This document shows, in pieces, positions 4,791 to 63,503 of a DNA stretch of 64,000 bases. Position 1 is the stretch's first letter. The number at the start of each line of letters is the position of its first letter. The notes beneath the pieces are model-generated. The model searched no databases. It saw only the letters and a program-made list of their open reading frames with translations, and was not told where the DNA came from. Source of the stretch: an uncultured Candidatus Saccharibacteria bacterium (lineage in GTDB: Bacteria; Patescibacteriota; CAZHWT01); assembly GCA_964554805.1 (NCBI GenBank), contig CAZKPX010000003.1, positions 12,366 to 76,365 on the forward strand, read 5' to 3'. The position numbers and the translations under genes were made by a program.

Positions 4791-4926
4791 AGAGGGTTAG
4801 TCGGCAGATTATTAATTCGTAAATGACTCGAGGTGTATTTTGTGATCGTAGGATGGGGTTGCGTGATTAAGCTTGCCTATTGAGATGGCTTGCTTGAAAA
4901 TCGATATGTATGGTAATAACAAGCTA

Positions 4927-6435: not shown

Positions 6436-6792
6436 ATGAAGATTTATGTGACGCATTCGAGTAATTTTGACTATAAAGAAGACTTGTATAAGCCGCTGCG
6501 ACATTCGGAACTGAATGAGTTGCATGAGATATTTTTGCCGCATGAGGAGAGGGCTGAGCCGGTTAATACTCGGCAGGTGATTAAGGGAAGTGATTTGGTA
6601 TTGGCTGAAGTGTCGTTTTCGTCAACTGGGCAAGGGATTGAGATTGGGTGGGCTGATGCGGCTGGAGTGCCTATAATTTGCTTGTACAGGACTGGTTCAA
6701 TGGTGTCCTCGTCGCTTGCGTTAGTAGCGAAAGAGATGATTGGGTATGAAAATGTAGCTGATAAGCTAGGTGAAATTTTGGATCGTATTTGA
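6436..6792 (+). CDS. nucleoside 2-deoxyribosyltransferase-like protein (third NDT-superfamily paralogue)
   Basis: MKIYVTHSS...GSDLVLAEVSFSSTGQGIEIGWADAAGVPIICLY fits an NDT-like Rossmann core (acidic residue plus Gly-rich loop, then G.P). Confidence 0.6.
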   Translation: MKIYVTHSSNFDYKEDLYKPLRHSELNELHEIFLPHEERAEPVNTRQVIKGSDLVLAEVSFSSTGQGIEIGWADAAGVPIICLYRTGSMVSSSLALVAKEMIGYENVADKLGEILDRI

Positions 6793-6919
6793 ATGGGTAA
6801 GGCGCAGGTGCGATCTGAGGAGATGCAGCTGCGCCTTGGCGGAGGGTAGGGACGGCTAGTCGGTTTTGACTGCCGGGTAGGGTAGCACAACGATGGGCTC
6901 ATGACTTGACTCCAGAGAG

Positions 6920-7228
6920 CTAGGCGGCCACGACAGGTGCTGAGGACGACAGATTCTTGGCTTGGCCTAGACGTCTGAGCCAGGCCTTGGCTTCAACCTC
7001 GGCTAGGTCGTAGTATTGGGTGTCATTTGTTTTGACGTCCTTCATCCACTCGAAGTAGGTGGTTGGCAGATGCTCGAGGGCCTGTCGGCAGACTGCCTGG
7101 TTGTCAGCCATGACGGCCACGTGCTTCTCTTCAGCTATGATGACGACGGTGTTGTCGCGACTAAGCTGAGCTACATAAACTCCTTGGTTGAACGCCGGGA
7201 TGGGCGAACCGAACATTACGAACCGCAT
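6920..7228 (-). CDS. hypothetical protein (about 103 aa)
   Basis: ATG at 7228 with an AAAGGAGG ribosome-binding site; the longer track ORF extends into a GCGACRR repeat. Confidence 0.45.
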   Translation of the reverse strand: MRFVMFGSPIPAFNQGVYVAQLSRDNTVVIIAEEKHVAVMADNQAVCRQALEHLPTTYFEWMKDVKTNDTQYYDLAEVEAKAWLRRLGQAKNLSSSAPVVAA

Positions 7229-7392
7229 GGCACACCTCCTTTTGGTGTATGAAAACTGCCAAGCACGGTTGATATATTTAGTATAGTATGGATGTATGGT
7301 TTTTGGCAAGAGGCTTTTGTAGCGACGGGCGACGAGCGACATGGGGTAGCGCAGAGGGCTGAAAACTCAACACTCAAAACTTAAAACAGGTA

Positions 7393-8043
7393 CTAGACGC
7401 CGAGCAGGATGGCTGTGATCTGCCTGACGCTGGAGCCTAGTTGGCCTTGGAAACTAAAGAGAAACATAAAAACCAGAATGAAGCCGTAGGGTTCGATTTG
7501 ATCGAGTATATCCTTGTATTGGACCGGTAAGATAGTTCGGAGTATTCGGGAGCCATCTAGGGGTGGTATGGGGGCTAGATTGAATAGGGCTAACAGGATA
7601 TTGTAGAAGACAAAATAGAAAGCTATCAGGGCTACGATATCGGCGCCAGGGAAGGGTGAAATATTAATTATGCGGAACATTGTGGCAAAGATAATGGCCA
7701 GGGCAAAGTTGACGATAATACCGGCAATGGCAACCCAGAAATAGTCGCGCTCACCGCCACGCAGGTTGCGATAGTTGACTGGGACCGGCTTGGCCCAGCC
7801 AAAGACTACGGCTGATCCGAATAGTTGAAGGGCTAGGGGGAGCAGAATGGTGCCAAAAGGGTCAATGTGAGGAATAGGATTGAGGGTCAGCCTCCCCTCG
7901 AGCTTAGCAGTCATATCTCCACAGCGATAGGCGACATAGCCATGGGCAATTTCATGAAGGATAATACTGACAATGACAGCCACGAAGGGAATGATGGCTG
8001 CTAGGAGTGGGTAGTTGAGAAAAGCGGATTCGAGTAGATTCAT
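7393..8043 (-). CDS. site-2 protease family zinc metalloprotease (peptidase M50B)
   Basis: HEIAHGYVA and FNLAPIPPLDGSRIL motifs with several transmembrane segments. Confidence 0.8.
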   Translation of the reverse strand: MNLLESAFLNYPLLAAIIPFVAVIVSIILHEIAHGYVAYRCGDMTAKLEGRLTLNPIPHIDPFGTILLPLALQLFGSAVVFGWAKPVPVNYRNLRGGERDYFWVAIAGIIVNFALAIIFATMFRIINISPFPGADIVALIAFYFVFYNILLALFNLAPIPPLDGSRILRTILPVQYKDILDQIEPYGFILVFMFLFSFQGQLGSSVRQITAILLGV

Positions 8044-8315
8044 GTTTTAGGATATAGGAGTTAGAATATTGAATATGGTGGCGACGGGCGACGAGAACGA
8101 GCGACGGGATTATAATATCAAATCTGACACAGATGCTGCCTTGGTATTGCAATGAGGTAAGCAATCTGGTATAGTTGGTCTCGCTTGGTTAGGAACATGT
8201 TTGACTAGAGATAAGTATAGCATGTCTCGGCTGGGTAGTTCTATTTGAAAGCTGTTCTGAATAGATCCGGAAAATAAGTTGCGGATGACATTTTTTAGAA
8301 CGAATGGTAAACATT

Positions 8316-8645
8316 ATGGCACGTACCTGCGATATTTGTGGCCGATCTCCGCTTGTCGGATATAGCATCAGTCACGCTCACAACAAAACAAAGAAGCGTC
8401 AGGATCCTAATCTACGCACTGTTAAGCTGGTTCATTCTGGAACAAGCAAGATGACTGTGCGGATTTGTGCTGATGACTTGAAGACACTTAAGACTAAGGG
8501 CCTGATTCAGCGTTGGAAGGATATGCCTGAAAACCAGAAAGCAGAAGTTAGCCATGAAGCTCCGGTAAGTGTTAAGCCAAAGAAGTTGACTCCTAAGGCT
8601 AAGAAGGCTAAGGCTGCTAAGAAGGCAGCTGTGGCTAAGGCCTAA
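8316..8645 (+). CDS. rpmB: 50S ribosomal protein L28 with a Lys/Ala-rich C-terminal extension
   Basis: MARTCDICGRSPLVGYSISHAHNKTKKRQDPNLRTVKL matches the L28 signature. Confidence 0.85.
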   Translation: MARTCDICGRSPLVGYSISHAHNKTKKRQDPNLRTVKLVHSGTSKMTVRICADDLKTLKTKGLIQRWKDMPENQKAEVSHEAPVSVKPKKLTPKAKKAKAAKKAAVAKA

Positions 8646-8678
8646 GTCTAAGCGTTTTACGTGGTGAGTTTTTAGAGA

Positions 8679-8712
8679 AACCCTGTCGAGAGATAGGGTT
8701 TTTTGTTGTCTG
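8679..8712 (+). terminator. terminator hairpin after rpmB
   Basis: AAACCCT-loop-AGGGTTT followed by a T-run. Confidence 0.55.
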
Positions 8713-8848
8713 GAATGTTGGGGATGAGGGGAGGTGGGGTTATTTGTATCGGGTCATTGCGAGGATCCGCCAGCTGGCGGAGACGTGGCAATCTAGGGGG
8801 GGGTATGAAGTGCATTTTTGGCTCAAGGTGTGGTGTCACTATATCTGT

Positions 8849-8948
8849 CCTGGATTGCCACTCCGCCAGTCGGCGGATCGCAATGACATTGCAGGGGGCA
8901 TTATTGTTTGTCCTGGATTGCCGCTCCGCCAGTTGGCGGATCGCAATG
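8849..8948. repeat. two tandem copies of a REP-like element CTGGATTGCCRCTCCGCCAGTYGGCGGATCGCAATGAC
   Basis: copies at about 8849-8887 and 8912-8948; a third near-identical copy at 23294-23330; palindromic core TCCGCCAGYTGGCGGA. Confidence 0.7.
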
Positions 8949-9103
8949 ACGGGGGTGATGGCTGAGGTAGAGGATGATCTTCTTTGTTATATTTTGATAT
9001 ACTCATAATTAAATCTTTAAGCGACGAGAACGAGCGACGAGGAAAGCTTTAAGGTATGCTGGTATTTATGAATTGTCGGTCAATTTTTACAACATTGCCG
9101 CAG

Positions 9104-9521
9104 ATGAAGGATAGGGCTTTTGCTGAGAATGAGCGGGCATTTGCTTTGCTGACTGATATTCCAATTACTGCGGGGCACACACTTGTTTGTCCGAAGCGTG
9201 TGGCGGTGACTGACGGTGAGTTGACCAAGGGCGAAGTGCTGGCTATGCACGAGTTGGTCTTGGAGGTAAAGTCTCGACCGCGAGAGGTGTTTGGAGCTAA
9301 GGGTTTTAATTGTGCTTGGTATGAGGGTGATGGCTATGGCCAGTCTGGGCCTCATTTTGCATATACATGTTGTTCCTCGTACTCCAGGCGATGAGGGGAT
9401 TGCTGAGTATGAGCCGCGGAGGTTTTTGTACCGGCCAGGAAGTCGAGAGGATTTGCCTGAAGCTGAATTGGCTGCGATTGTGGCACGATTACGAGTGACG
9501 AGCGATGAGGGCTATCGGTGA
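9104..9521 (+). pseudogene. HIT-family (histidine triad) hydrolase gene with an apparent frameshift
   Basis: the N-terminal part (track ORF 9056..9394, ...FALLTDIPITAGHTLVCPKR...GDGYGQS) and the HIT motif LILHIHVVPR (track ORF 9291..9521) lie in different frames, with a 1-nt shift near 9345-9350. Confidence 0.5.
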
Positions 9522-9564
9522 TTTTGAAGGCGCTAGGATTCTATACTGACACTGGTGGTTGGCG

Positions 9565-9598
9565 GCAGCAGGCAACACTTTCGGAAGTGTTTGAGTTT
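9565..9598 (+). terminator. terminator hairpin (CAACACTTTCGGAAGTGTTTG) followed by a T-run
   Basis: perfect stem followed by AGTTTTTG. Confidence 0.55.
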
Positions 9599-9871
9599 TT
9601 GCTCTGAGACTAGAGTGTCGAGTTTAGTTTAAATCCTAAATCCACCCACCTATCTTTTTTTGTATGTCATTTTTTCATACCACATAAACATGACTTAGTA
9701 TCGCCGTAGGTATGGGCGGGATTTTTTGATTGTTTAGCGCTGCTTGGTCAAGATAAGAGACCAATGTGTGGTATGAAAGAAATGAATACGGGGGTTTATT
9801 TTAAACACAGAAGACAGAAGGTGGGAGGCTGCCTAAATCCTTCCGCTGGCTGGCGGATCCTATAGCTGACG

Positions 9872-45315: not shown

Positions 45316-46038
45316 TTAAAGGTTAAAATCTGACCAACCTCGGAGGTTATCGCCCCAGAGAACCTCCGAGGTTGGTTTGTTTGTGGCTAGGAGTCTTTGG
45401 TAATCTGCGTTGTCCGTTATAAAGCGAAGATAGCTTTGTTTAGAAGGGAATTCGCATAATATAGAAGTGTTATCACAAGAAGATGCCAGCTTTGATGAAG
45501 CTTGCTCTGAGATATAGGCTGATATAGATGACCATGGGTATGCTAGGCAGCCTTCCACTGTTTTGCTAATCGAACTTGCGTACGGATTTAGATGAATATA
45601 TCTTGATGTATGGAGGAGTTGTTCTTTGCTGCTGATATGTACGGCCTTGAATTGTGTGGAGAAAAGAGGGCCTTGGCGTTTATTCAGCTGATTAAAGTAC
45701 TTGGTGTAGCTGTTTTGAAATAGACTGAGATAGTGAGAAATTCCATTTTGGCTATTTTGTCTTAACAGTAAGTGGAAATGATTTGGCATAAGACAGTAGG
45801 CGATAATATCAACTTTTTGATCTGCGTTATTGTTATTGCTGAGCAGCCCACTCCTTGCGATTAGGGTCTGTCGAATATAGCTACTGAAGCTGATGGGCTG
45901 CGACTTAAGGTAGAACTCAAGTGTGCTCATTGCTCGCTGATAGTGAAGATTGCTGGCAAAGGTTAGTTGGTGATTCTGGCCTCTATTATAGACATGGTAT
46001 ATCTGGCCGTTTTGTAGGGGGAGTTGTCGACGAGGCAT
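45316..46038 (-). CDS. REP-associated tyrosine transposase (RAYT; IS200-like Y1 transposase)
   Basis: YHVYNRG, LMPNHFHLL (HuH) and RYIHLNP (catalytic Tyr region) motifs. Confidence 0.75.
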   Translation of the reverse strand: MPRRQLPLQNGQIYHVYNRGQNHQLTFASNLHYQRAMSTLEFYLKSQPISFSSYIRQTLIARSGLLSNNNNADQKVDIIAYCLMPNHFHLLLRQNSQNGISHYLSLFQNSYTKYFNQLNKRQGPLFSTQFKAVHISSKEQLLHTSRYIHLNPYASSISKTVEGCLAYPWSSISAYISEQASSKLASSCDNTSILCEFPSKQSYLRFITDNADYQRLLATNKPTSEVLWGDNLRGWSDFNL

Positions 46039-46150
46039 AAAATGGGTGCTTTATATGATGTGTTCTAGCTCATATAACTAAGATAGTCAACAACTAAGCA
46101 TGTGAACCTCGGAGGTTGTCTGGGTTGTGAACCTCCGAGGTTGGTTAATT
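45338..46150. mobile_element. RAYT gene bracketed on both sides by paired AACCTCGGAGGTT/AACCTCCGAGGTT hairpin-forming repeats (BIME-like)
   Basis: CCAACCTCGGAGGTT...AACCTCCGAGGTTGG at 45340-45385 and GAACCTCGGAGGTT...GAACCTCCGAGGTTGG at 46098-46150. Confidence 0.65.
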
Positions 46151-52718: not shown

Positions 52719-52994
52719 TGTGCTCTGCCTTTCCTTTTTTGGTAACAAAAAACTCTCCGGTGAGGGAGAGTTAGAATGGTTACCAGATAGAAACGGAAAA
52801 AACGGGTATATCAGGCCATAGAACTTCCCTCAACATGACTGTTGGTAAACCAATAGATATAGTTGTGGGAACGTTGAGCTGACATAGGGGAAGTATACAC
52901 CTTGGAGCGACGAGCGACAAGCGACGGGTGACGAGGGGTGTTTTTGCTAGAAAAGGGATGGGGTATACTGGAGATACTAGGTGAAGGAGGTTTA

Positions 52995-53912
52995 ATGAAG
53001 GGTATTCAAGCTGAGATGGAGGGGATTTATTTGGTGCCGGTGTCGAAGAATGTTGAGACTGAGGTGATGAGAGCATTGTTTCCCAATAGAAAGATTGTGG
53101 TGTGTGATGCGTATGTGGCGGATATTGAAAAAATCGGGCGGTCGATTGCGGGGGGATTTGCCTTGGATGAGGATATTATCAATATTGATCATCATGCACC
53201 GGCTGTAGAAATGGAGCGGCCCATTTCTAGTACGCCGTTGGCTATTGAGTACATGCAAGCGTTTGGCTCTATTTCAAAAGACGCTGTGGTTGTGATAAAC
53301 CATATGGATGCTGATAGCATGCTGAGCTCGGCGGTTATGCGAGGCTTGATTGAACCTGAAGAGCGATTTGGTGAGGCGGCTATTGCGGCTGATCACACCG
53401 GAGCAGACAATGAACTGGCTGATTTGCTGCAAGGTTGTGGTCAGGCTCGAGACTTGGAATTTTCGTACCGCAACCTGAAGCTGTGGCTGGCAGGGCAGCC
53501 AATAGAAACGAAAGCGCAGGAGTTGTTGGATAAGCAGCGCCTGCAACGGGCTGAGGCTAAGAAGTTGGTTGATGAAGGGAAGTTTACTGTAACTGAGTCT
53601 GGTTTAGCTTGGATTTATGTGGAGGATAAGATTGATGGAGCCTTTTCCCCGGCTTTGTTGCCAGAGGCGAAAGTAATTTTGCAATTTAGTCCTATTGATG
53701 GGGGAGCTCGGCATCGAGTCGGTCATCGTCTGGGTTTGGCAGCTCCGGCTGGTATGACGTTGCATAAACTGGGTGTTGATACCTTTGATAAAGCTTTTGG
53801 TGGACGATGGAATGCTGGTAATAATAGCCGTGCAGGGGGAACCGAGATAGCTATGGAGGCTTATGTGGCTGAAGTTGATAAGCGATTTGGGGTTTTAAGA
53901 GCTAATAGTTAG
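52995..53912 (+). CDS. DHH-family phosphoesterase (NrnA-like)
   Basis: motifs CDAYVAD, IDHHA and NHMDADS; ribosome-binding site GAAGGAGG before the ATG at 52995. Confidence 0.55.
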   Translation: MKGIQAEMEGIYLVPVSKNVETEVMRALFPNRKIVVCDAYVADIEKIGRSIAGGFALDEDIINIDHHAPAVEMERPISSTPLAIEYMQAFGSISKDAVVVINHMDADSMLSSAVMRGLIEPEERFGEAAIAADHTGADNELADLLQGCGQARDLEFSYRNLKLWLAGQPIETKAQELLDKQRLQRAEAKKLVDEGKFTVTESGLAWIYVEDKIDGAFSPALLPEAKVILQFSPIDGGARHRVGHRLGLAAPAGMTLHKLGVDTFDKAFGGRWNAGNNSRAGGTEIAMEAYVAEVDKRFGVLRANS

Positions 53913-54623
53913 GCTTTTGATATTGTATTTATCTAGAATAATCTGAAACGATTGTCGATTTTTTGTCTTTTTAAGCCAGAACTTACGTCGAGAATCTTGA
54001 TCGGCGGTATCAAGTTGATTAAACAGAGTATCGAAGTTTAGTAGCAGGAGGTTGGTATGAGATGAAGGTGTGAGTTGCAAATCATGGCAGAGGTAGAGCG
54101 CTCTGATAAGGTCTCCAAGCAGGCAGCTGGCATAGGAGCGACCATTGCCGCGGTGATTAGCCCACACTTCAACACCGGATAGTCGAAGCTCGTACCGCTT
54201 ATCGTTTAAATCGATGAGGGCTTTGTCATCGCCTACTATCAAATTGCCTTTAGCGTCCATCAACATTAAGGTGAGATAGTCAGTGTGGTATGAATGTTTG
54301 CCAATGCTATCTTCGAAGAAATCTCCGCTGAGGCCAGTGGCTGAAATGTTTTCAAACTCCCATTCTGGGTAATGGACGCCTAGCTGAGCTTCGGCCTCCA
54401 AAACCGCCTCCGCAATACCGGGTTGATTTAACTGGTTGCCTTGAAAAATGACATCACAATCTTTGGGCGGTAAGCCTAGGGCGACGTTGCGTAGAAAGCC
54501 GCCAACGATGTGAGGATTTTTGAAGTTAGGATTTATCTGCTCGGCTAAAGCAAGAGTTTTTAATCGGGGTGTAACTAGTGGGTGGCTATTTAGTTGTTGT
54601 TCAAGTTCTGTTAGGGTTTTCAT
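53895..54623 (-). CDS. polymerase-beta-type nucleotidyltransferase, head domain only (CCA-adding/poly(A) polymerase family)
   Basis: GGFLRNVALGLPPKDCDV aligns to the CCA-enzyme GGAVRDLLLGRKPKDIDL motif; 242 aa. Confidence 0.55.
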   Translation of the reverse strand: MKTLTELEQQLNSHPLVTPRLKTLALAEQINPNFKNPHIVGGFLRNVALGLPPKDCDVIFQGNQLNQPGIAEAVLEAEAQLGVHYPEWEFENISATGLSGDFFEDSIGKHSYHTDYLTLMLMDAKGNLIVGDDKALIDLNDKRYELRLSGVEVWANHRGNGRSYASCLLGDLIRALYLCHDLQLTPSSHTNLLLLNFDTLFNQLDTADQDSRRKFWLKKTKNRQSFQIILDKYNIKSLTISS

Positions 54624-54771
54624 TTGACAAAGTATACACCAAATCGCCTGGTTGCTAGGGCATTTGACTAGCTGGCAACGCGCTGTCTGTTAAATGTGTA
54701 TTGTCTATGGTATCTTTTGTATAAACTATATTGTCTGTATGGCTCTTGTGTGAGCTGAGAGGATAGTACTT

Positions 54772-56343
54772 ATGTCAAATTCTGACCTGAACTCATTTGA
54801 GAACACACCATTGCCGGTGGAGGAGGCGGTGGCGTCGATGGTTATGCCTGGGGTGGGGATTCAGGCTTCTAATTTTGAAAACTTTAAGGATGATGTGTTT
54901 GGGCGGGATTCGATTCGGTTTGGTCGGGATTTGCCGGATCGGCAGGATATTGGGCGGCTGGTGATTGATAGTTTGGCTCGGTTGCAGGCGCGGGAGGAGC
55001 AGGTGGCGAATGAGATGGCTGATGCGACTTTTGGCGGGATTCATCATGAAGCCCGATTGCTGTATGTGGATGGACGAAAGATTGGGCCGAAACAGCAGGA
55101 GCATTTGCAGCGTTGGTCAAAGCGGTTTGGTGGTGATGACAATGGCTTTATTTATTATGGAGCTACTGATGCTACTCCGGATTATGTGACCTTTGTGGCT
55201 GAATATTGTCAGAGATTTGGCATGGAGTGGCTAGATGAGACATTTGAGCATGTATCAGGTAGAGAATATACGTATAAGCAAAGTTTGTTGGATGCCATTA
55301 CCTGGATAGAGGAGCGGTTGGAGGTGTCGGATATTGGGTTGGTGGAGTCGTTTCACCAGAATCCGACTGGACACTATTTCCAATTTTGGCGAGATACTCA
55401 TGAATCATATCGCGATCCTGAGGGCAAAATAATTAATGCGCTGGGGCCGATTGCTTCGTTTGAGGTGCAGATCAAAGCTTATGACGCGTTGATGAATGCA
55501 GCTGATTTGTTGGGTGACGAAATGCAGGATAAGGTTGAGGAGTGGAGAGATAGGGCGGCTGATCTGCGGAGACGCACTTTGGAATGGTTTTGGATGCCAG
55601 AGGACGACTATTTTGGCATGGCAGTAGATCGGGATGTTGAGGGCAAGCCGCGTCTGGTTAAGACGATTAGCTCGCTGCCAGCTGAGTCCTTGGACAGCCG
55701 ATTTTGGGGAGATTTGGATGAAGCTGATCGACAGAAGTATGTTGCAGCCATTGTCCAACGAACTTTTACTGATGAATTTTTGACTGAGGTGGGTATTCGA
55801 TGCCTGAGCAAGTCGCTGTTTGCGGTATTGAGCCATCATTTTAATCATGGTCCGAGTGCGGTGTGGCCGATGTCGAATAATGTAATCAGTATTGGGTTGT
55901 CTCGGCAAGGTTTTTATGTTTTGGCCGATGAATTGGATCAACGGACTCTTAATTCGGTTAATATTGCCGGTAAATTGTTGGAAAATTATGATGTGACTGA
56001 GGATGGTCGAATTAATTATGATCCGACGGCTGACAAAGAAATTGAGGTGGACAGGGAAGAGTTGATCTCATCAATTCTCCCTGAACACACTCAAGCCTGG
56101 ACGGCTTCAGCTATTGCTCGAATTCTTGCAACTCGACAGCAAGGATTGGCTAAGGAAGAGTCGTGGCAGAAAGCTTTGACTGAGGAAATACTCGGTACAA
56201 TTACGCCTGCTCCTCGATATTCTACACAGACAGAGCTGGATGAAGCATTTCCTCGACAGTATGGGTTTGTGGCTAATAGAGAGAGGGCGCTGGAGGAAAT
56301 GAATAAGGATTTGGTAGCAGCGGGTTATCCGACTATTCCGTAG
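54772..56343 (+). CDS. putative (alpha/alpha)6-barrel glycoside hydrolase (GDE_C/GH63-like)
   Basis: 523 aa; composition and length typical of this fold; no sharp motif seen. Confidence 0.4.
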   Translation: MSNSDLNSFENTPLPVEEAVASMVMPGVGIQASNFENFKDDVFGRDSIRFGRDLPDRQDIGRLVIDSLARLQAREEQVANEMADATFGGIHHEARLLYVDGRKIGPKQQEHLQRWSKRFGGDDNGFIYYGATDATPDYVTFVAEYCQRFGMEWLDETFEHVSGREYTYKQSLLDAITWIEERLEVSDIGLVESFHQNPTGHYFQFWRDTHESYRDPEGKIINALGPIASFEVQIKAYDALMNAADLLGDEMQDKVEEWRDRAADLRRRTLEWFWMPEDDYFGMAVDRDVEGKPRLVKTISSLPAESLDSRFWGDLDEADRQKYVAAIVQRTFTDEFLTEVGIRCLSKSLFAVLSHHFNHGPSAVWPMSNNVISIGLSRQGFYVLADELDQRTLNSVNIAGKLLENYDVTEDGRINYDPTADKEIEVDREELISSILPEHTQAWTASAIARILATRQQGLAKEESWQKALTEEILGTITPAPRYSTQTELDEAFPRQYGFVANRERALEEMNKDLVAAGYPTIP

Positions 56344-56531
56344 ATTTTGCATTTGGGCATTGAGAGGCTGTAAGATCAGGCTCTTGTAAATCTGCCTGGG
56401 GGCGATAGGTTTGGGTATCAGATTTAGCTGCGGATTAATGATTGGTTGTTGGGTGCTAGGATGGATTGTGATAGAAAGATGAGGTGAGGGAGCGTTCTCT
56501 TGCTGTCTGTTGAGCGGGGCTAAGGAGAAGG

Positions 56532-57107
56532 ATGATGACTGGCGAGCTGAGATGTTCGTGTGGTGTCTGGGGTATTCCTCCGAAAGCCAACTATTGCCCG
56601 ATGTGCGGCGGGCGGTTGTTTGCCAAGGATCAGGCTCAGTCTGGCTGGGAATGGTTGGGAGTGACATTGGATGAAACGGAGGATCAGTTTGATTGGTCTG
56701 TGGTTGTAGCTCGAGCGCTGTTGGCTGAGATTCAGCGATTGGGGAACTATTTTGGCGACTATGACCAGGGTATCTTCCGTTTTGGCCAGAGGCTGTGGTT
56801 GGCTTTTGATGGTCAGGAGTATGAGCTACACTTGAACTATCCCGCGATGTTTGAGTCGCGCTTTGCCGTTGAGCATAGCGCACAAGGAGAGACAGGCGAT
56901 CGGCCAATTGTGGTGCCGGCTCGTATCGATGTGTATCAGAGGAGCGATGAAGACAAGACTGTCTTGACGAGCCAAGAGCAGCTAGACTTTGAGCAGCTGC
57001 AACAGCGATTCAGTTCCGAAGTGATTCGCCAGTGGGCTAGCGGGTTGTATGGCCTGATGGCCTATCGTGCCTTCTATATCTCATTGGGAAACTTTGTTAG
57101 TCCGTGA
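56532..57107 (+). CDS. hypothetical protein with an N-terminal zinc ribbon (CxC...CxxC)
   Basis: ribosome-binding site AAGGAGAAGG; LRCSCGVWG...YCPMCGG. Confidence 0.45.
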   Translation: MMTGELRCSCGVWGIPPKANYCPMCGGRLFAKDQAQSGWEWLGVTLDETEDQFDWSVVVARALLAEIQRLGNYFGDYDQGIFRFGQRLWLAFDGQEYELHLNYPAMFESRFAVEHSAQGETGDRPIVVPARIDVYQRSDEDKTVLTSQEQLDFEQLQQRFSSEVIRQWASGLYGLMAYRAFYISLGNFVSP

Positions 57108-57117
57108 TTGTAGTTTT

Positions 57118-57160
57118 GTGTGGGTTCCGACTTGATTGTCGGAACCCACTTTGTGTTTGT
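57118..57160 (+). terminator. terminator GGGTTCCGAC-loop-GTCGGAACCC-ACTTTGTGTTTG
   Basis: 10-bp perfect stem followed by T-rich sequence. Confidence 0.65.
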
Positions 57161-57180: not shown

Positions 57181-57215
57181 TTAATAGTTGAAGTTGGTTT
57201 TATGTTCTTGAAAAT
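57181..57215 (+). repeat. degenerate copy 1 of the ychF 5' end (TAGTTGAAGTTGGTTTTATGTTCTTGAAAATTAATGG)
   Basis: aligns to 58928-58965 (the real ychF start) and to 57719-57756. Confidence 0.6.
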
Positions 57216-57260
57216 TAATGGTTTCAAGTTGAAATGGAAGGGATTTAATCCTTTTGTGAG

Positions 57261-57557
57261 CTAGTGTGCCGAGGTTATCTGGGATGGCAACTCCCGGAGT
57301 TGCCAGAGAGGTATGAGTTGAATGTTGTTCTCTGGAATCCAGCAATAACCATGCCAACGTTTTGGCTCTCCAATAATTATTAGCTGGGCTTTGTTAACAG
57401 AAAGCATGGTGCTCCGGGTAAGGATGTGGATGCACGGCGCCGTTGTATGCAAGTGGGCGGGTAATGCATACCAATCAATACGCACTATGGCATTTTCGAG
57501 TAGATGCCGGTAGAGGTTTTCCGCAATTAGATGAGAATCTGTGCTGAGAGTAGACAT
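57261..57557 (-). CDS. hypothetical protein (98 aa)
   Basis: ORF only; no recognisable motif. Confidence 0.3.
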   Translation of the reverse strand: MSTLSTDSHLIAENLYRHLLENAIVRIDWYALPAHLHTTAPCIHILTRSTMLSVNKAQLIIIGEPKRWHGYCWIPENNIQLIPLWQLRELPSQITSAH

Positions 57558-57718
57558 TGTGTTCTTCTCCTGTACATCGAAGCTTAGCTACAGCAGCCTA
57601 GTTCAACGGCGGGATTGTGCATCATGGCGTAATAGGCAATTCAACGACTTAGCTAATTTTTGGTTTGATATAATGATCGAGAATTTATAGTCCCTGAATC
57701 AAGCTCGGGATGACAAGT

Positions 57719-57756
57719 AGTTGAAAGTTGTGTTCATGTCTTTGAAAATTGGGATA
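57719..57756 (+). repeat. degenerate copy 2 of the ychF 5' end (TAGTTGAAAGTTGTGTTCATGTCTTTGAAAATTGGGATAGTGGC)
   Basis: aligns to 58928-58972. Confidence 0.6.
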
Positions 57757-57888
57757 GTGGCAATAGTGTATCAACTTTAGAATTCACCTTTGATTTTCTA
57801 CTTCCATCGCCAGATAAGTTTAGAATAATAGCTAGAGGCGACCAATAGGAGAGAGCTTTTTGTTCAGGACCAGATTGGGCATATTTTT

Positions 57889-57917
57889 TGACATAAGACC
57901 TATAGTATGCTATAATT
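57889..57917 (+). promoter_or_regulatory. promoter TTGACA-17-TATAAT
   Basis: consensus hexamers about 45 nt upstream of the 57964 ORF. Confidence 0.6.
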
Positions 57918-57963
57918 ATAGATAGATCTCTACGACTTGACTTAAAATGAGAGGTGGGTGCTC

Positions 57964-58854
57964 ATGAAGATTATAGCTGTGGACGTTTCGGATCATCGGC
58001 TTCTGGTCAATCGCAAGGCTGATCAGCTGCTATTGGATGGCAAAGTCATTGGCCGGCCAATAAACGACCGCCTTGCAGGGTATTTGGTATACAGATATCC
58101 GCAGAAGTTTTCAACGATTTGCTTCAGGACAGACGAAGGGGGTACCTATTGTCTGGCTAGTCGCGAATTCGAATATTTCCCCGGACCCGATAATTCTGTT
58201 CGCAGATGCTTTGCTGAGCGGAAACGATTTGGTAAAGTGCAACTAACCTACCCTGAGGCAGTTCGGCGAATCAAGGTTGGCCTTGATCTTAGTCAGGGCT
58301 TGCCGATTGAGTGGGATGCTGAAGGTCGGTTTTTGACCAATTTAAGCAATGTTGAAATCCCTGCTCAGCGTCCGTGTGGAAAAGAGTGGGCAAGATTTGC
58401 TCGCATAGCTTCACTCCGAAGCATTTCGTCTGCTAACTGGCAGAGTATGCTTAAGGCGCTGGAAGGAAAGTACGTCCATCGGGTCTTGACTTTGGATCGG
58501 GTTCGATCTGAAGTGGAAGAGATGAAACGGATTGAAAGGCGTAAGCTCAGTCTGGAAAAGAAGCTGCAATCGCTGGCCATAGGCCAATGTTATCAGCCTC
58601 AAAGCGACGCTATTAAAGTAATAGATGTTGGCGAGAACATGGTGTTCTTCGTCACCATCGGTAGCCGGCAGCTGTATGCTGTTGATTCACCAAATTATGG
58701 CCGAGCCTTTTACTTGTTCGAGGAGTATGCAGATGCTGCTGCTTGGGCTACAAGGCTTATTGATCAATCAGAGGCCCGGCGAAGAGCACTAGTTTTCCAT
58801 ACCCATCACAATGGTTGGCAGGACAGGGTGGCTCGTTCGCTGGCTTCGGCTTAG
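57964..58854 (+). CDS. hypothetical protein (297 aa)
   Basis: ribosome-binding site GAGGTG; own consensus promoter. Confidence 0.45.
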   Translation: MKIIAVDVSDHRLLVNRKADQLLLDGKVIGRPINDRLAGYLVYRYPQKFSTICFRTDEGGTYCLASREFEYFPGPDNSVRRCFAERKRFGKVQLTYPEAVRRIKVGLDLSQGLPIEWDAEGRFLTNLSNVEIPAQRPCGKEWARFARIASLRSISSANWQSMLKALEGKYVHRVLTLDRVRSEVEEMKRIERRKLSLEKKLQSLAIGQCYQPQSDAIKVIDVGENMVFFVTIGSRQLYAVDSPNYGRAFYLFEEYADAAAWATRLIDQSEARRRALVFHTHHNGWQDRVARSLASA

Positions 58855-58946
58855 TGATCTGGTTTGTTGCGGGGCGGCTTCGATAGTCGTCCCGTTTTTT
58901 GTATCTGATATAATTATCCTGATATTTATAGTTGAAAGTTGGTTTT

Positions 58947-60002
58947 ATGTCTTTGAAAATTGGTATTGTGGGGCTTCCTAATGTGGGGAAGTCGACACTT
59001 TTTAATGCTTTGATGAAGAAGTCACAGGCGTTGGCGGCTAATTATCCGTTTGCTACTATTGAGCCAAATGTAGGGGTGGTGCCGGTGCCGGATGAGCGGT
59101 TGCAGGCGTTGGCTAAGTTGTATAATCCGCCCTCAGTGGTGCCGGCGACCATAGAGTTTGTTGATATTGCTGGGCTGGTTAAGGATGCATCGAAGGGCGA
59201 GGGGTTGGGCAACCAGTTTTTGTCTCATATTCGAGAAGTCGATGCGATTGTGCATGTGATGCGGGAGTTTGGTGATGGCAATGTGATTCATGTTGAGGGA
59301 CGGGTTAACGCTGACGAGGATCGAGAAATCATTACGACTGAGCTGATGTTGGCTGACTTGGGAGTGTTGGAGAAGTCTTGTCGAGTCAATAAGTCGGGTA
59401 ATATGGCCAAGGATGAAATAATTCGACAATCGGCTATTGCCAAGGCTATAGAAGCTTTAGAAAAAGGAAAAGTAGAAGATCTGATTCACTTGAATGATGA
59501 TGAGAAGCTTGCCTTGAAGAGTCTGAACCTGTTGAGCATGAAGCCGGTTATTTATATTCATAATGTTGATGAAGACCAATTGTTAGCAGGTGATCCGCTA
59601 CCTCCGGGGCATATCAAAGTCAATGCTCAGTTGGAGGCAGAACTTAGCTCATTGTCTGAGGACGAGCAGGTTGAATATCTGAAGGATTTGGGGATTGAGC
59701 AGAGTGGTTTGGATAAGGTGATTAAGGTGGGTTATGAGACCTTGAATTTGATGAGCTTTTTGACCGCTGGGGAGAAGGAGGTCCGAGCTTGGACTATTGA
59801 TCGTGGCAGCAAGGCACCGCAGGCAGCAGGGGAGATTCATACTGATTTTGAGGCTAAGTTTATCCGAGCTGAGGTGGTCAATTGGCAAGATTTGATGGAG
59901 CAGGGGAGCTGGAATGAGGCTAAGTCTAAGGGCATGATCCGGATGGAAGGTAAGGATTATGTGGTGCAGGATGGGGATGTGATGGTGATTCATCATTCTT
60001 GA
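58947..60002 (+). CDS. ychF: ribosome-binding ATPase YchF (Obg-like GTPase family)
   Basis: MSLKIGIVGLPNVGKSTLFNAL P-loop start; C-terminal TGS domain ...DGDVMVIHHS. Confidence 0.9.
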   Translation: MSLKIGIVGLPNVGKSTLFNALMKKSQALAANYPFATIEPNVGVVPVPDERLQALAKLYNPPSVVPATIEFVDIAGLVKDASKGEGLGNQFLSHIREVDAIVHVMREFGDGNVIHVEGRVNADEDREIITTELMLADLGVLEKSCRVNKSGNMAKDEIIRQSAIAKAIEALEKGKVEDLIHLNDDEKLALKSLNLLSMKPVIYIHNVDEDQLLAGDPLPPGHIKVNAQLEAELSSLSEDEQVEYLKDLGIEQSGLDKVIKVGYETLNLMSFLTAGEKEVRAWTIDRGSKAPQAAGEIHTDFEAKFIRAEVVNWQDLMEQGSWNEAKSKGMIRMEGKDYVVQDGDVMVIHHS

Positions 60003-60010
60003 TGAATCGC

Positions 60011-60058
60011 AGTGAGAAGCGAGAAGGAGAAGCGAGAAGTGAGAAATGAGAAGCGGAG
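60011..60058. repeat. heptamer tandem repeat (GYGAGAA)n
   Basis: GTGAGAAGCGAGAAGGAGAAGCGAGAAGTGAGAAATGAGAAG. Confidence 0.7.
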
Positions 60059-60094
60059 ATTGACACTTTTTAGGCAGAAGTGTATACTTTTGGT

Positions 60095-60376
60095 ATGAGT
60101 AGTTATGCAGTCATTAATCTTAAAACAGATCCAGTATTGAAGAAAAAGGCGGCTGAGGTGGCTGATAGGTTGGGTATTAGTTTGAGTGCGGTGTTGAATA
60201 ATGAGTTGCGGCGGTTTGCGGTGGAGCAAAGTGTGTCGTTTGAATTGCCGGAAGTGCCGAATGCTCAAACAGCAACCCTGTTGAAAGACTCTGAGATGGA
60301 GATAGTCGCTGGCGAGCATCATCGGTTTAAAAACAACCAGGAGGCGCTGGATTTTTTGGCCTCTGAGCTGGAGTAG
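60095..60376 (+). CDS. type II antitoxin, RelB/DinJ family
   Basis: MSSYAVINLKTDPVLKKKAAEVADRLGISLSAVLNNELRRF ribbon-helix-helix-like N-terminus; -10 TATACT lies 6 nt upstream. Confidence 0.65.
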   Translation: MSSYAVINLKTDPVLKKKAAEVADRLGISLSAVLNNELRRFAVEQSVSFELPEVPNAQTATLLKDSEMEIVAGEHHRFKNNQEALDFLASELE

Positions 60377-60399
60377 ATTGAGGTTAACTGATATCTCAT

Positions 60400-60657
60400 A
60401 TGACGATTTCGTATACCAAGGCTTTTATTAAACAAGCCAAAAAGCTGTCTCCTGCAGCCAGGCTACAGCTGCAAGAGCGGCTGAGATTGTTTGTCCAAAA
60501 CCCCCTAGATCCAAGCTTGCGCAATCATCCATTAAAGGGGCGGTATAAGCAATATCGGAGTATTAATATCAGCGGTGATTTGCGAGCTTTGTATCTATTG
60601 ACTGAAGGCGAAGCTATTTTTGAAGCTGTCGGTAGTCATAGTGAATTGTATGAGTGA
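60400..60657 (+). CDS. type II toxin, RelE/YafQ family mRNA interferase
   Basis: ...NHPLKGRYKQYRSINISGDLRALY matches the YafQ/RelE pattern (HPLKG..YRE.HI..DWLLIY); 85 aa. Confidence 0.65.
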   Translation: MTISYTKAFIKQAKKLSPAARLQLQERLRLFVQNPLDPSLRNHPLKGRYKQYRSINISGDLRALYLLTEGEAIFEAVGSHSELYE

Positions 60658-60668
60658 GGGGAGGGTTT

Positions 60669-61382
60669 ATGAAGTATTTAGTGGTTAATGCTGATGATTT
60701 TGGGTATACGGCTGGGGTTAATGAGGGGATAATTCGGGCTCATCGAGAGGGGATTGTGACTAGTGCTTCGTTGATGGTTGATGGGGATGCGGCTGAGGAG
60801 GCAGTTGCTTTGAGTAGGGATTGTCCTGATTTGGCGGTGGGATTGCACTTTCAAATGACGGATGAAGGATTAGTCAGTTTGATTCGGGCACATGGAAAAC
60901 TGTATTTGAGTTCGCAAGCTACGGTTGAGCGGGAATTTGGACGGCAGATCGAAGCTTTTGAAAGGTTAATGGGTCGAAAACCTAGCCATATAGATTCTCA
61001 TCATAGTATTCATTTGCATAGCCAACTAGTCAATATTATTTTAGAGTATGCAGATGAGCATGATCTAGCTGTTCGAGGACAAAATGGCAACAAATTTATA
61101 AGAGACTTTTTTGCCTGGGATAAACTAAAGAATACTGATTTGAGTAAAGTTAGTATCGAAAGCCTGAAGAGAGTGGTGGCCGGGTTGGAGGATGGAGTGA
61201 ATGAGTTGATGTGTCATCCGGGAGTAGCTGATGAGGCATTGTTGGCTGAGACTAAGTATGCCAAAGAGCGGGAGGTGGAGTTGCAGACTTTGACTGAGGC
61301 AGGATTGAAGGAATATGTTGAAAGTTTGGAGATTGAGTTGGTGTCTTGGGAAGAAGTTGGGCGGCTGGTGGGCCGCCCGTAA
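60669..61382 (+). CDS. ChbG/YdjC-family carbohydrate deacetylase
   Basis: MKYLVVNADDFGYTAGVNEGII...HIDSHHSIH. Confidence 0.7.
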   Translation: MKYLVVNADDFGYTAGVNEGIIRAHREGIVTSASLMVDGDAAEEAVALSRDCPDLAVGLHFQMTDEGLVSLIRAHGKLYLSSQATVEREFGRQIEAFERLMGRKPSHIDSHHSIHLHSQLVNIILEYADEHDLAVRGQNGNKFIRDFFAWDKLKNTDLSKVSIESLKRVVAGLEDGVNELMCHPGVADEALLAETKYAKEREVELQTLTEAGLKEYVESLEIELVSWEEVGRLVGRP

Positions 61383-61385
61383 GCA

Positions 61386-61751
61386 TTAGGCTTGATTTGG
61401 AGCTGCGGGCAACTGGGTGAGAGCTTGCTGATAGATATCAAGCAAGTTAGACCAATCGCTTGGAGCCTGTTGGAAGAGGGGGGAGAGGAAGGCGTTGACG
61501 ACCTCAATAATTGTTCCAGTGTTGCCGGATTCGCTACAAAAGTTGGCACCGACAGTTAGTCGAATGCATATCTGGCTGACCGCTTCCAGGTCGCCGTCTA
61601 TTCCGCTAAACGATTCTGGAAAAGCTTTGGAGATTGTCGAGTAGAATTTTTGTCGACTATCGCCGTCTGCTATTCTTTCAATCGCTTGCTCAATTACAAA
61701 CCTAATCTGACCGCCGCCGGTAATAATGGGTAACGGGGTAGAATGACTCAT
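61386..61751 (-). CDS. hypothetical protein (121 aa)
   Basis: promoter TTGACG-17-TAAAAT upstream on the minus strand. Confidence 0.4.
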   Translation of the reverse strand: MSHSTPLPIITGGGQIRFVIEQAIERIADGDSRQKFYSTISKAFPESFSGIDGDLEAVSQICIRLTVGANFCSESGNTGTIIEVVNAFLSPLFQQAPSDWSNLLDIYQQALTQLPAAPNQA

Positions 61752-61922
61752 GTGCTCTCCCTGCTTGTCTGGCTTGAGGTTAATTGAGGTGGGCGGATTT
61801 TAGCATGTCAAGGGGCAAGCGTCAAGGAGGTGGGGTTTTGACTTTTGTGGGTGGAGCATGCTATATAGCCAAGTGAGAGCTGAATCGTGTGACCAGTGGC
61901 TGTTCAGTACAAGGAGAGAGTG

Positions 61923-62471
61923 ATGAGCGACGGTGAGTTGATAGGGCTGAAGGATGTGACTGAGGAGCGCATTCTCCGGTCACTAGAGGATGGTTCAACA
62001 GATCTGTTTGCGGGTCATATGCTGCTGATCGCATATTATGTTGATTATGACGATCAGGTTAAGTATAGAAAAGACTGGCAAGCGGCGCACCCAGATAAGG
62101 CTTATTGGGCTCCGACTTGGTTGCGGCTGCTTGTTGGTAGCACATCCTTCTGCAGGATGGGTTGGCGGCATGACTTTTATGTCGTTGAATTGTGGGCAAC
62201 TATCGAGCTCGGTGCGTTGACTGACTGCGGTTGGATCGTAGACTTTTTGGAAGCGCCGCCGAAGGATGATGTTGTTGAAGGCTGGAAGAAGGAGCTGGTT
62301 GCGCATGTGACTGCTCTGGCCACGATAGGGTTGACCAACGCTGAGAAGTGGGGGTTGTCCTATGATCCGACTCGGCTGGCGTATGTCAAAAACGGCACGA
62401 CCAGTTACGAGCTGGATGAGCCGACGATGCACCTTCGGTCGTTTGATCTGTGGCAGGCTGGCTTCAAATAG
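61923..62471 (+). CDS. hypothetical protein (182 aa)
   Basis: ribosome-binding site AAGGAGAG before the ATG at 61923. Confidence 0.4.
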   Translation: MSDGELIGLKDVTEERILRSLEDGSTDLFAGHMLLIAYYVDYDDQVKYRKDWQAAHPDKAYWAPTWLRLLVGSTSFCRMGWRHDFYVVELWATIELGALTDCGWIVDFLEAPPKDDVVEGWKKELVAHVTALATIGLTNAEKWGLSYDPTRLAYVKNGTTSYELDEPTMHLRSFDLWQAGFK

Positions 62472-62654
62472 AAGAACGCTTAGTGGGTGACGGCGACTGA
62501 GTAGCTTGATGGGCACCTGTGGCGCGTAAATCGCGACCATGGGTGCCTATTTGAATAATTTGCTCTATTGAGGGAGAAGGGATTGTTATTTTTAAAAATA
62601 AGGAAAAGTGAGAGGCGGTCGTATAAGACCGCCTCTTGTCGACTGAGCCAGTTT

Positions 62655-63290
62655 TCAAGCTTTGGGTTGCTTCGGCGGAAACAAGTCGAATATCCTTTGG
62701 CTGCGATGATATATTGTGAGGACTCTACCCAATCCTAATTGTCGGCGCTTGGGGTCGGTCCTTGCATGCTCGAATAGGGCTTGCAGCTGAGAATCGCGCA
62801 ATTCTGGTCTAAATTCGACTACCTCAGCCAAGGCAAGGACGGCAGCCTCTCTGACTTCAAAGCTCGGATCTTCCAGTAGGCCATGCAGCTGCTCGCATCG
62901 CCACTGTCCGGACTGATTGATGCCGACAAAGCCAAAGCCCAAGAGTTTTACGATGCAGATGCGCACGTAATCAATCCGACTGGTGAACATGTCTTGCGCT
63001 TTGGCAGCGGAGTCGTTCTCTTCGGTCCAGTTGTTGTGGGTAAGTCCATAGAAGGCTCCAAGGTAGCGCATAGCCATCTGGTCTAGGCTATAGTTGCCAC
63101 CGGAACGACCTAAGGTGCATGCTTTACATTCAAGGACATGCACCAGCTCTTGGTTGGTTAGCGGTATGTTTTGTATGTAGTGCAATGGGCGAAGAAGTCC
63201 ACTGCGGCGCATCAATAGCACGAGTGCGTACTCGTCGCAAGTTATTTTGGACCCAACAGGATAATCTTCCTCTTGAGGTGTATCGGACAT
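62655..63290 (-). CDS. hypothetical protein with a HEAT-like C-terminal region
   Basis: ATG at 63290 with an AGGAGAG ribosome-binding site; the longer track ORF start would contain the TATACTCCCC promoter. Confidence 0.4.
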   Translation of the reverse strand: MSDTPQEEDYPVGSKITCDEYALVLLMRRSGLLRPLHYIQNIPLTNQELVHVLECKACTLGRSGGNYSLDQMAMRYLGAFYGLTHNNWTEENDSAAKAQDMFTSRIDYVRICIVKLLGFGFVGINQSGQWRCEQLHGLLEDPSFEVREAAVLALAEVVEFRPELRDSQLQALFEHARTDPKRRQLGLGRVLTIYHRSQRIFDLFPPKQPKA

Positions 63291-63503
63291 GTTTTCTCTC
63301 TCCTGTGATGAACCAATACGACAGGGGGAGTATAGCATAGAGATTAGGTTTAACTAAATTATTCATAAATTTGGTGCGCATCTTGTTAGTTGCGCTCAGA
63401 AATGGTATACTTCTGCAGATCATTGTATTGATCGTGCATGCCGTCTTGGTGTCGGTATGTTTATCTATCTAAAAACAAATCTTATATTTAACCGAGGATC
63501 ACG

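Follow-up and report, generated by a model that had tools for sequence, protein, structure and literature searches.

Why does the 5' end of a single gene, ychF, occur three times in a row, with other genes lying between the copies, in a 64-kb stretch of DNA (64,000 nt, hereafter the window, to which coordinates refer unless a locus is named) from an uncultured Candidatus Saccharibacteria bacterium? A first-pass annotation had proposed successive site-specific insertions at one site, each of which duplicated the ribosome-binding-site and start region of ychF and left the older copies to decay. The answer towards which we lean, after comparing the locus with those of related species, is that the repeats are the scars of repeated insertion at the start of ychF in one Saccharibacteria clade. 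The three copies lie where the first-pass annotation had placed them, and its description of the two bracketed genes also holds, namely a minus-strand open reading frame (ORF) between copies 1 and 2 and an ORF with its own promoter and terminator between copy 2 and ychF. The region is organised as follows.

57120-57149, plus strand: intrinsic terminator hairpin (12 pairs, 8 GC) followed by a T-run, directly 5' of copy 1
57181-57216, plus strand: copy 1, the oldest fossil, with leader, ATG at 57202 and 4-5 ychF-like codons (from repeat matches)
57261-57557, minus strand: cargo 1, ORF98, with a good AGGAG ribosome-binding site upstream
57657-57690, plus strand: promoter part of copy 2, with T-run and extended -10 box TGATATAAT at 57666-57674 (repeat family D7)
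57691-57720, plus strand: 30-nt insertion splitting the copy 2 leader relative to copy 3 (read from the sequence)
57718-57760, plus strand: copy 2, with leader, ATG at 57736 and 8 ychF-like codons, to 57760 (from repeat matches)
57888-57916, plus strand: consensus sigma-70 promoter of ORF296 (TTGACA-17-TATAAT, 12/12, TG-extended)
57964-58854, plus strand: cargo 2, ORF296, of an uncharacterised Patescibacteria family
58869-58895, plus strand: terminator of ORF296
58897-58971, plus strand: copy 3, the working ychF 5' region, with T-run, TGATATAAT at 58906-58914, 32-nt leader, ATG at 58947 and first codons
58947-60002, plus strand: ychF, 351 aa (Pfam MMR_HSR1 and YchF-GTPase_C; homologues)

The 26-nt core AAGTTGGTTTTATGTCTTTGAAAATT matches the window three times at up to 3 mismatches (57191-57216, 57725-57750 and 58936-58961), while 0.00 chance matches are expected from shuffled sequences; a 35-nt version of the repeat matches twice, with 0 expected by chance, and no further copy of the motif occurs elsewhere in the 64 kb. 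Specifically, the working leader, start and first codons of ychF (58929-58971) recur at 57718-57760, with 88% identity across 43 nt and the exact 17-mer ATGTCTTTGAAAATTGG in common, and, more decayed, at 57181-57216. In this oldest copy, about 33 of 37 positions match the leader and ATG, the -10 box has decayed and the sequence diverges after +15. The first-pass annotation had recognised the likeness of copy 2 to the ychF start; the likeness runs further upstream than was noted, covering also the T-run and the extended -10 box (57657-57678 versus 58897-58918, 77%). The ATG of copy 2 opens a mini-ORF of 14 codons (57736-57780), MSLKIGIVAIVYQL followed by a stop codon. As at copy 1, a terminator precedes the ychF promoter at copy 3 and in the relatives.

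The comparison set consisted of the ychF loci of 10 related Saccharibacteria species (designated here by L numbers) together with the window. The YchF protein search returned a tight group at 72-80% identity, with the next best matches at 60% or less; the nearest genome match was an uncultured Candidatus Saccharibacteria metagenome-assembled genome (L001, YchF 78% identical), and a metagenome scan with YchF as query yielded distant relatives only. Downstream of the gene, the order ychF-rpsF-ssb-rpsR is conserved, and the upstream side is different in every species. Four species besides that of the window, with YchF 76-80% identical, carry one displaced copy of the ychF start each, which we call a fossil: at 4074 in L001, 5.9 kb upstream of ychF; at 8987 in L010, 1.0 kb upstream; at 6567 in L014, 3.4 kb upstream; and, in decayed form, at about 4442 in L019, 1.3 kb upstream. 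No upstream ychF fossil was found in L015, L018, L021, L024 and L025. YchF is full length in the window and in all four carriers.

The DNA between fossil and gene differs from one species to the next. The L001 island holds four unknown ORFs and an IS200-like Y1 transposase between its own 32-nt inverted repeats; that of L010 a single minus-strand ORF of 240 aa; that of L014 two proteins, one with HEPN_Toprim_N and one that is caspase-like (PADLOC 'caspase', 4e-13); and that of L019 two small ORFs. In an all-against-all tblastx comparison of the upstream regions, the islands had in common only the stretch adjacent to the fossil, which we refer to as the block. Comparison across related genomes, which the first-pass annotation had named as the way to check its proposal, thus separated five fossil-free species from four in which a fossil is combined with unrelated cargo and a constant ychF-like end, an outcome in its favour.

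The left edge of the variable region is given by a conserved gene, which serves as an anchor.

52938-53912, plus strand: anchor gene, conserved but uncharacterised, 324 aa, at which the variable region begins on the left (homology to L024 and L014 genes)
53913-57119: older part of the variable region, inserted relative to L024

Homologues of the anchor gene with 52-54% amino acid identity are found at 5001-5915 in L024 and at 3371-4297 in L014. The L024 homologue and ychF are 143 nt apart; relative to L024, therefore, the inserted DNA amounts to about 5 kb in the window and to 5.7 kb in L014. No recognisable ychF-start fossil is left within 53913-57119. On a neighbour-joining tree of YchF, fossil carriers and non-carriers are interleaved, and therefore at least 3 gains or about 4 losses are required.

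One indication of how the fossils arose comes from the point at which they stop resembling ychF. In every carrier, identity between the fossil and the genome's own ychF ends right after ...AAAATYGG (+17); past this point the fossils read G/A-AT-A/G and the real ychF genes N-AT-Y. Up to this point, wherever the species differ synonymously (codons 2, 3 and 5: TCT/AGT, TTG/CTC/TTA and ATT/ATC), the fossil agrees with the ychF of its own genome, the single exception being L010, whose fossil has AGT and whose ychF has TCT as codon 2. Beyond +27, the fossils show neither significant DNA similarity to ychF (z<1) nor profile similarity to YchF residues 1-100. The four fresh fossils (window copy 2, L001, L010 and L014) keep a -10 box 7-10 nt before the ATG, the spacing in window copy 2 being 31-61 nt owing to the long leader and the 30-nt insertion, and in each of them the ATG opens a 14-codon mini-ORF, MSLKIGIVxxxSQL, with the stop at the identical position. 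A species-specific, ychF-like left half fused at a constant nucleotide to an anciently diverged right half is the pattern that a putative left attachment site (attL, B-O-P') would present.

The locus L014 gives this pattern a direction. Here the fossil carries the short promoter that is native to the L014 clade, while the working ychF has a long leader resembling the type of the window and L025; yet the L014 ychF coding sequence is native from the first compared segment on (87% identity to the sister L010 versus 72% to the window). A native promoter on the fossil and a foreign-type leader on a native ychF are as predicted by a crossover near the start codon that brought in a foreign right-hand arm. 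As to the origin of the working 5' end, L014 fits an island-supplied one, L001 indicates the opposite, and the three leaders of the window are indistinguishable.

The two promoter types deserve a description of their own. Most relatives (L015, L018, L019, L010, L024 and L001) carry TGATATAAT 8-9 nt before the ychF ATG; the short-promoter type is seen in the 30 nt upstream of the start in each.

L015, L018, L010 and L001, 9971-10000: short-promoter type, 30 nt upstream of the ychF start
L019, 5692-5721: the same
L024, 6029-6058: the same

With the box only 8-9 nt from the ATG, the resulting ychF mRNA would be leaderless or nearly so. The window (58906-58949) and L025 have instead a 32-nt ychF leader in which GAAAG resembles a Shine-Dalgarno element. 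These two genomes agree at 92-93% over the first ~120 nt of ychF (58947-59066 in the window, 2914-3033 in L025) and at 63-87% in the sequence that follows; the ychF 5' end in these two genomes may be a recombination tract, judging from this step in identity.

The block that follows the fossils is the only other sequence shared by the islands.

57763-57870, plus strand: conserved non-ychF block, candidate left end of the inserted element (nhmmer, tblastn, codon comparison)

It is homologous between species over ~110 nt (nhmmer; tblastn E 8e-12 to 3e-5), with an identity of 46-61% at the nucleotide and 37-52% at the amino acid level, and is anciently diverged. Unexpectedly, its substitutions show that it evolves like a protein-coding sequence in the -1 frame relative to the fossil ATG, under purifying selection. 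Specifically, 30 of 83 differing codon pairs are synonymous in the -1 frame versus 9 of 80 and 5 of 79 in the other plus-strand frames; the -1 frame is without stops and the other frames have 2-5; and three Arg positions alternate between AGA and CGN. In the window, the -1 frame is open from 57735 to 57848, ending with a TAG (57846-57848) where the relatives have CAG. The peptides read in this frame, each closed by a stop codon, are FENWDSGNSVSTLEFTFDFLLPSPDKFRIIARGDQ in the window, and end in PTLKLSFEFIAPKPRKTRTITARDNAGRIVHSRS in L001, PTLAFTFHLQLQPPNKFRNITLRDKQGRIVSSKACHISKV in L010 and PTLKLQFTLVLPLPNKARKITLRNKRGRILNSQALCC in L014. Tested region by region, positions +1 to +42 fit the ATG frame best and those from +43 onward the -1 frame; the switch falls at the stop of the mini-ORF, in the invariant CAACTTTAR, within the 11-nt stretch TCCCAACTTTA(R) that is invariant in three species.

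How such a frame could be translated is less evident. It contains no ATG, GTG or TTG, and an upstream start is ruled out, the frame being closed by the TGA of cTGAtataat in the extended -10 box. Neither a canonical X XXY YYZ frameshift heptamer nor a conserved downstream structure was found at the frame switch. The options for the coding signal, on the codon evidence, would be recoding at the CUU-UAR 'shifty stop' or a coding history in another context; the recoded product, if made, is predicted to have 45-51 aa, hydrophobic in its N-terminal half and strongly basic in its tail. For the block peptide, homologues were not found among 5.8 billion clustered proteins, in Pfam or elsewhere in the fetched loci.

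Three other identities for the block were considered and rejected. A decayed continuation of ychF is ruled out by the DNA and YchF-profile tests given above, an apparent STL/PTL match being no evidence for it. Coding on the minus strand is ruled out by three stops in L010 and by the invariant plus-strand Arg, which would become Leu<->Arg exchanges. A known or structured RNA in the repeats or the block is likewise excluded, with no Rfam match in the window, L010 or L014 and an essentially empty consensus fold (-0.19 kcal/mol).

Taken together, these observations can be ordered into a mechanism of serial insertion. The first ~17-27 nt of ychF and its promoter would be a recombination target that was hit repeatedly, each event inserting 0.5-6 kb of foreign DNA with 1-5 genes and no recombinase of its own. 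The incoming DNA would have the conserved ~110-nt block at its left end; its right end would be of ychF type, from a terminator and promoter by way of the leader to the start and up to ...AAAATYGG. A crossover placed inside the common ATG...AAAATYGG segment would keep ychF intact behind the incoming promoter (attR, P-O-B'), while the earlier promoter and start would be displaced leftward and fused to the block as a dead 14-codon mini-ORF (attL). The joining might be due to a recombinase encoded elsewhere or to the recombination system of the host: the inserts could have been moved in trans, could be decayed remains, or could have been inserted by host recombination across 70-100 nt of homology. 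The window would then represent two serial events: ORF98 comes after copy 1, the block and ORF296 come after copy 2, and the working start is copy 3, with more, undated insertions to the left of copy 1.

We favour serial insertion because the three copies are far beyond chance and fossils of the same build exist in four other species; because fossil-free species exist, the cargo differs and the anchor gene abuts ychF in L024; because the junction after ...AAAATYGG is constant, with a host-specific 5' part and a diverged block on its two sides; and because the GC skew of ORF296 is atypical (0.13-0.19 versus 0.29-0.49 for ychF) and there are precedents in the dusA islands, in tycheposons and in the use of ychF as an attachment (att) site.

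Several results weigh against this reading. Gains and losses of the fossil are about equally parsimonious on the YchF tree. The block is intact in four integrase-free genomes, which suggests that it is kept by selection in place, a circumstance that fits a resident host gene equally well. The L001 fossil has a non-native promoter type (CTGTTACAAT...GGTTGG), so that an extra, lost event is needed. No integrase, resolvase or DDE transposase is encoded in any island or within ~10 kb on either side of ychF at any locus, the sole mobility gene being the IS200-like Y1 transposase of the L001 island with its own inverted repeats. An excised or extrachromosomal, attP-like form was not found in viral contigs, phages and plasmids (3 pattern scans of viral contigs and 2 BLAST searches, 0 matches). 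Finally, no present-day polymorphism was seen at the site, overlapping contigs from different samples being 100% identical.

The search for a recombinase had been put forward in the first-pass annotation, and on this point its proposal is not supported: serial insertion at one site with decay of the older copies fits our data, but the integrase or recombinase that site-specific insertion calls for was not found in the islands or in roughly 20 kb around ychF in any genome. In the window, L001, L010, L014, L019 and the other loci, neither the island ORFs nor the genes called in the surroundings of ychF contain a Phage_integrase, Resolvase or Recombinase domain. A related autonomous element with a cognate recombinase at the same att was not found in the loci of the 11 species or in viral, phage and plasmid collections, in a limited search space with one genome scan and one metagenome scan. 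The cassette borders showed no attC-type palindromes or conserved inverted repeats and no consensus fold, and no intI was found. The IS200-like Y1 transposase is ruled out as the agent, as it occurs in one island only (L001), has its own inverted repeats and, in the window, lies 11 kb off; the 240-aa cargo of L010 is unrelated to it.

The duplication of the target was described in the first-pass annotation as a consequence of each insertion. In the transposon sense this is unlikely: each repeat measures 45-75 nt or more, terminal inverted repeats are lacking around either window insert and a transposase within them, and the left copy is joined to a ~110-nt block that is not ychF. Rather than a staggered cut, an att-type or Campbell-type duplication, with incoming DNA bringing its own look-alike of the ychF 5' end, would fit the arrangement better.

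In the main alternative, the arrangement is a resident platform and not the trace of mobile elements. A single ancient partial duplication would have fused the promoter, start and 6-9 codons of ychF to a small coding sequence, the block, which would be a host gene, passed on vertically with losses in some of the lineages. The DNA separating fossil and ychF would be a permissive spot in which genes turn over by illegitimate recombination or by homologous recombination after natural transformation; gene conversion from ychF would keep the 5' part species-specific, and copy 1 of the window would be a second, later duplication. We consider this possible, though clearly the less probable account. 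It agrees with the protein-level purifying selection on the block, with the intact promoter in four of four fresh fossils, with the divergence of the block (46-61%), which is on the scale of the species divergence, and with the lack of both recombinase and excised form; moreover, a loss-only history needs about 4 losses versus 3 or more gains, and a small gene of the fossil-ychF interval of L019 is also present upstream of ychF in the fossil-free L025. Five observations speak against it. Block likeness does not follow the species tree, since the blocks of L010 and the window pair best even though few of the species are as divergent as that of the window; L014 has the native-type promoter at its fossil and the foreign-type leader at its real gene; the window has two fossils in series; and the block neither has a start codon, so that a plain host gene is not evident, nor any homologue among called proteins.

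A further, doubtful reading assigns a function to the arrangement as a whole. The promoter copy, the 14-codon mini-ORF and the block might form a conserved module and no scar, serving Saccharibacteria, and them only, as a cassette end or capture platform that has no recombinase; its product of ~45-51 aa could be made only by -1/+2 recoding at the invariant CUU-UAR 'shifty stop', with defence and orphan cassettes being swapped between the module and ychF by trans-acting or host recombination.

It is improbable, in our judgement, that host homologous recombination accounts for the scars by itself, through Campbell-type integration of circular foreign DNA carrying a ychF 5' fragment, with a single crossover in ~70-100 nt of homology and no dedicated recombinase. 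The length of the duplicated unit, which extends from the terminator/T-run and -10 box through the leader into the first codons and comes to at least 45-75 nt, and the failure to find a recombinase would be expected from such a process, and the step in identity between the window and L025 along ychF hints at recombination tracts. However, five of five fossils end at one nucleotide and join a homologous block, which random fragments would not do, so that a defined architecture is still needed; in addition, the foreign sequence in L014 stops short of the coding region.

That the repeats are no meaningful feature at all is very hard to maintain: a generic ribosome-binding-site and start context, which the first-pass annotation had held out as a refutation, does not account for a motif with 0 chance matches expected and no other copies in 64 kb, and an assembly artefact concatenating strain variants, conceivable in that the source is a metagenome-assembled genome and several public contigs end just upstream of ychF, is contradicted by copies that differ and share no word longer than 17 nt, so that an assembler could not have joined them, by the same architecture in four independent assemblies of other species, and by a Logan contig from an independent assembly, 100% identical to the window from 58159 onward.

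As for these contig ends, the public contigs L006, L017, L022, L023, L026 and the one carrying P0012 end 50-800 nt upstream of ychF, and the Logan contig of the window organism begins at 58159, inside ORF296. They could reflect heterogeneity of the population at the site, but the overlapping contigs are identical, as stated above.

With regard to the genes brought in under serial insertion, ORF98 has no family match. ORF296 is a real folded protein and no orphan: in a full HMMER scan it has 107 remote homologues with the C-terminal ~180 residues in common, one of them annotated as from a Patescibacteria bacterium, and its AlphaFold model is confident (pLDDT 90). Neither ORF296 nor 10 of its homologues contain a Pfam domain, and no PADLOC, PHROG, PDB or viral-structure match was obtained for ORF296, which may represent a new fold family in Patescibacteria. 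The older part of the variable region contains the following genes.

Within 53913-57119, minus strand: ORF of 242 aa
54772-56343: MGH1-like glycoside hydrolase
56532-57107: ORF191, just left of copy 1

ORF191 carries an N-terminal CxC...CxxC zinc-ribbon-like motif and has no family match. In L014, the variable region (4355-4870 and 6744-9721) encodes an Imm5-like immunity protein in addition to the HEPN_Toprim_N and caspase-like (Peptidase_C14) proteins and, from its gene content, looks like a defence island at the ychF site.

Some features lie outside the variable region proper. A 240-aa IS200-like Y1 transposase is encoded at 45316-46038 on the minus strand of the window (Pfam Y1_Tnp 1e-8), and REP-like palindromes, GAACCTCCGAGGTT, lie on both sides of it, at about 45352-45377 and 46103-46150; it resembles a REP-associated tyrosine transposase and shares 40% identity with the Y1 enzyme of the L001 ychF island. 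Directly after the ychF stop codon, at 60011-60053, a 13-14-nt unit (AGTGAGAAGCGAGAAG-like) is present in three tandem copies. The 3' flank of ychF is variable too: in the window, 60003-63503 between ychF and rpsF holds a RelB/YafQ toxin-antitoxin pair at 60095-60657, followed by YdjC at 60669-61382, and three unknown ORFs; L015, L018 and L025 have ychF directly next to rpsF; and a 23S_rRNA_IVP (bAvd-like) gene is found in this flank in L010, L019, L023 and L024.

In Saccharibacteria, as in Patescibacteria at large, the genome measures about 1 Mb and contains few recognisable mobile elements, and their acquisition of accessory and defence genes is poorly understood. An insertion hotspot at the ychF start in these tiny-genome bacteria is previously undescribed. 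If serial insertion is correct, an insertion site in the first codons of an essential-type gene, marked by readable scars in at least 5 species with unrelated cargo, would be a concrete and testable route of gene flow in Saccharibacteria. It would also provide a landmark by which accessory islands could be located when assemblies are fragmentary, and it might serve as a safe-harbour site in those few strains that are genetically manipulable. The coding-like, start-less block may be a small recoded gene or the footprint of a novel recombination system.

Among known systems, the closest in outcome are the dusA-specific genomic islands, which give that gene a new 5' end while the original one stays behind as a remnant (Farrugia et al. 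2015, PMC4482086). Insertion into the 5' end of a housekeeping gene, a remnant on the far side and flanking imperfect direct repeats (attL/attR) would be common to both; the replacement 5' end is island-supplied in dusA and would be so in L014. Here, such repeats over the ychF 5' end with an intact target are present in the window, L001, L010, L014 and L019, and empty sites exist in relatives. The dusA islands have, however, a tyrosine integrase next to the att, a size of tens of kb, 21-bp att repeats and excision documented by polymerase chain reaction, while the putative ychF islands have no integrase gene next to the att site, inserts of 0.5-6 kb and a repeat of at least 45 nt that includes the promoter.

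Tandem accretion of integrative elements and cis-mobilizable elements (CIMEs) is said to have been described in streptococci by Pavlovic (2004) and Bellanger (2011). There, as in the window with copies 1-3, ORF98 and ORF296, three direct att copies bracket two inserts that have no recombination genes and would need a recombinase in trans. CIMEs differ in that they derive from a co-resident family of integrative and conjugative elements with the att at the 3' end of fda; an autonomous partner using the same att site was not found here. In the tycheposons and tRNA-seeded islands of Prochlorococcus, each new integration displaces the older elements inward, and scattered partial tRNAs remain as scars (Hackl et al., bioRxiv 10.1101/2020.12.28.424599). 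The streamlined host genome, repeated integration at one site, partial-target scars and small adaptive or defence cargo are all alike, but tycheposons target the 3' halves of tRNA and tmRNA genes, many have tyrosine recombinases, and their excision has been demonstrated.

Integron cassette arrays share with the ychF locus a fixed, promoter-bearing platform followed by variable, mostly single-gene, recombinase-less inserts; intI, attI and attC-type imperfect palindromes at the cassette ends are lacking here, and integron insertion does not duplicate the platform. Transposons, with their target duplications of 2-15 bp, terminal inverted repeats and transposase, do not match a repeat of at least 45 nt either. 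Mobile elements that attach at ychF are themselves already known, namely pipolins that have large serine recombinases (LSRs) and a satellite prophage of pneumococci (PMC11551731, PMC10383233); these belong to other phyla and bring their own recombinases, and the satellite inserts in the upstream intergenic region and not in the first codons.

In conclusion, the resemblance to the dusA, CIME and tycheposon systems is, by analogy, one of outcome and not of demonstrated machinery. What distinguishes the ychF locus from all of them is the combination of very small inserts without a recombinase gene, a repeat that includes the whole promoter, and a conserved coding-like block.

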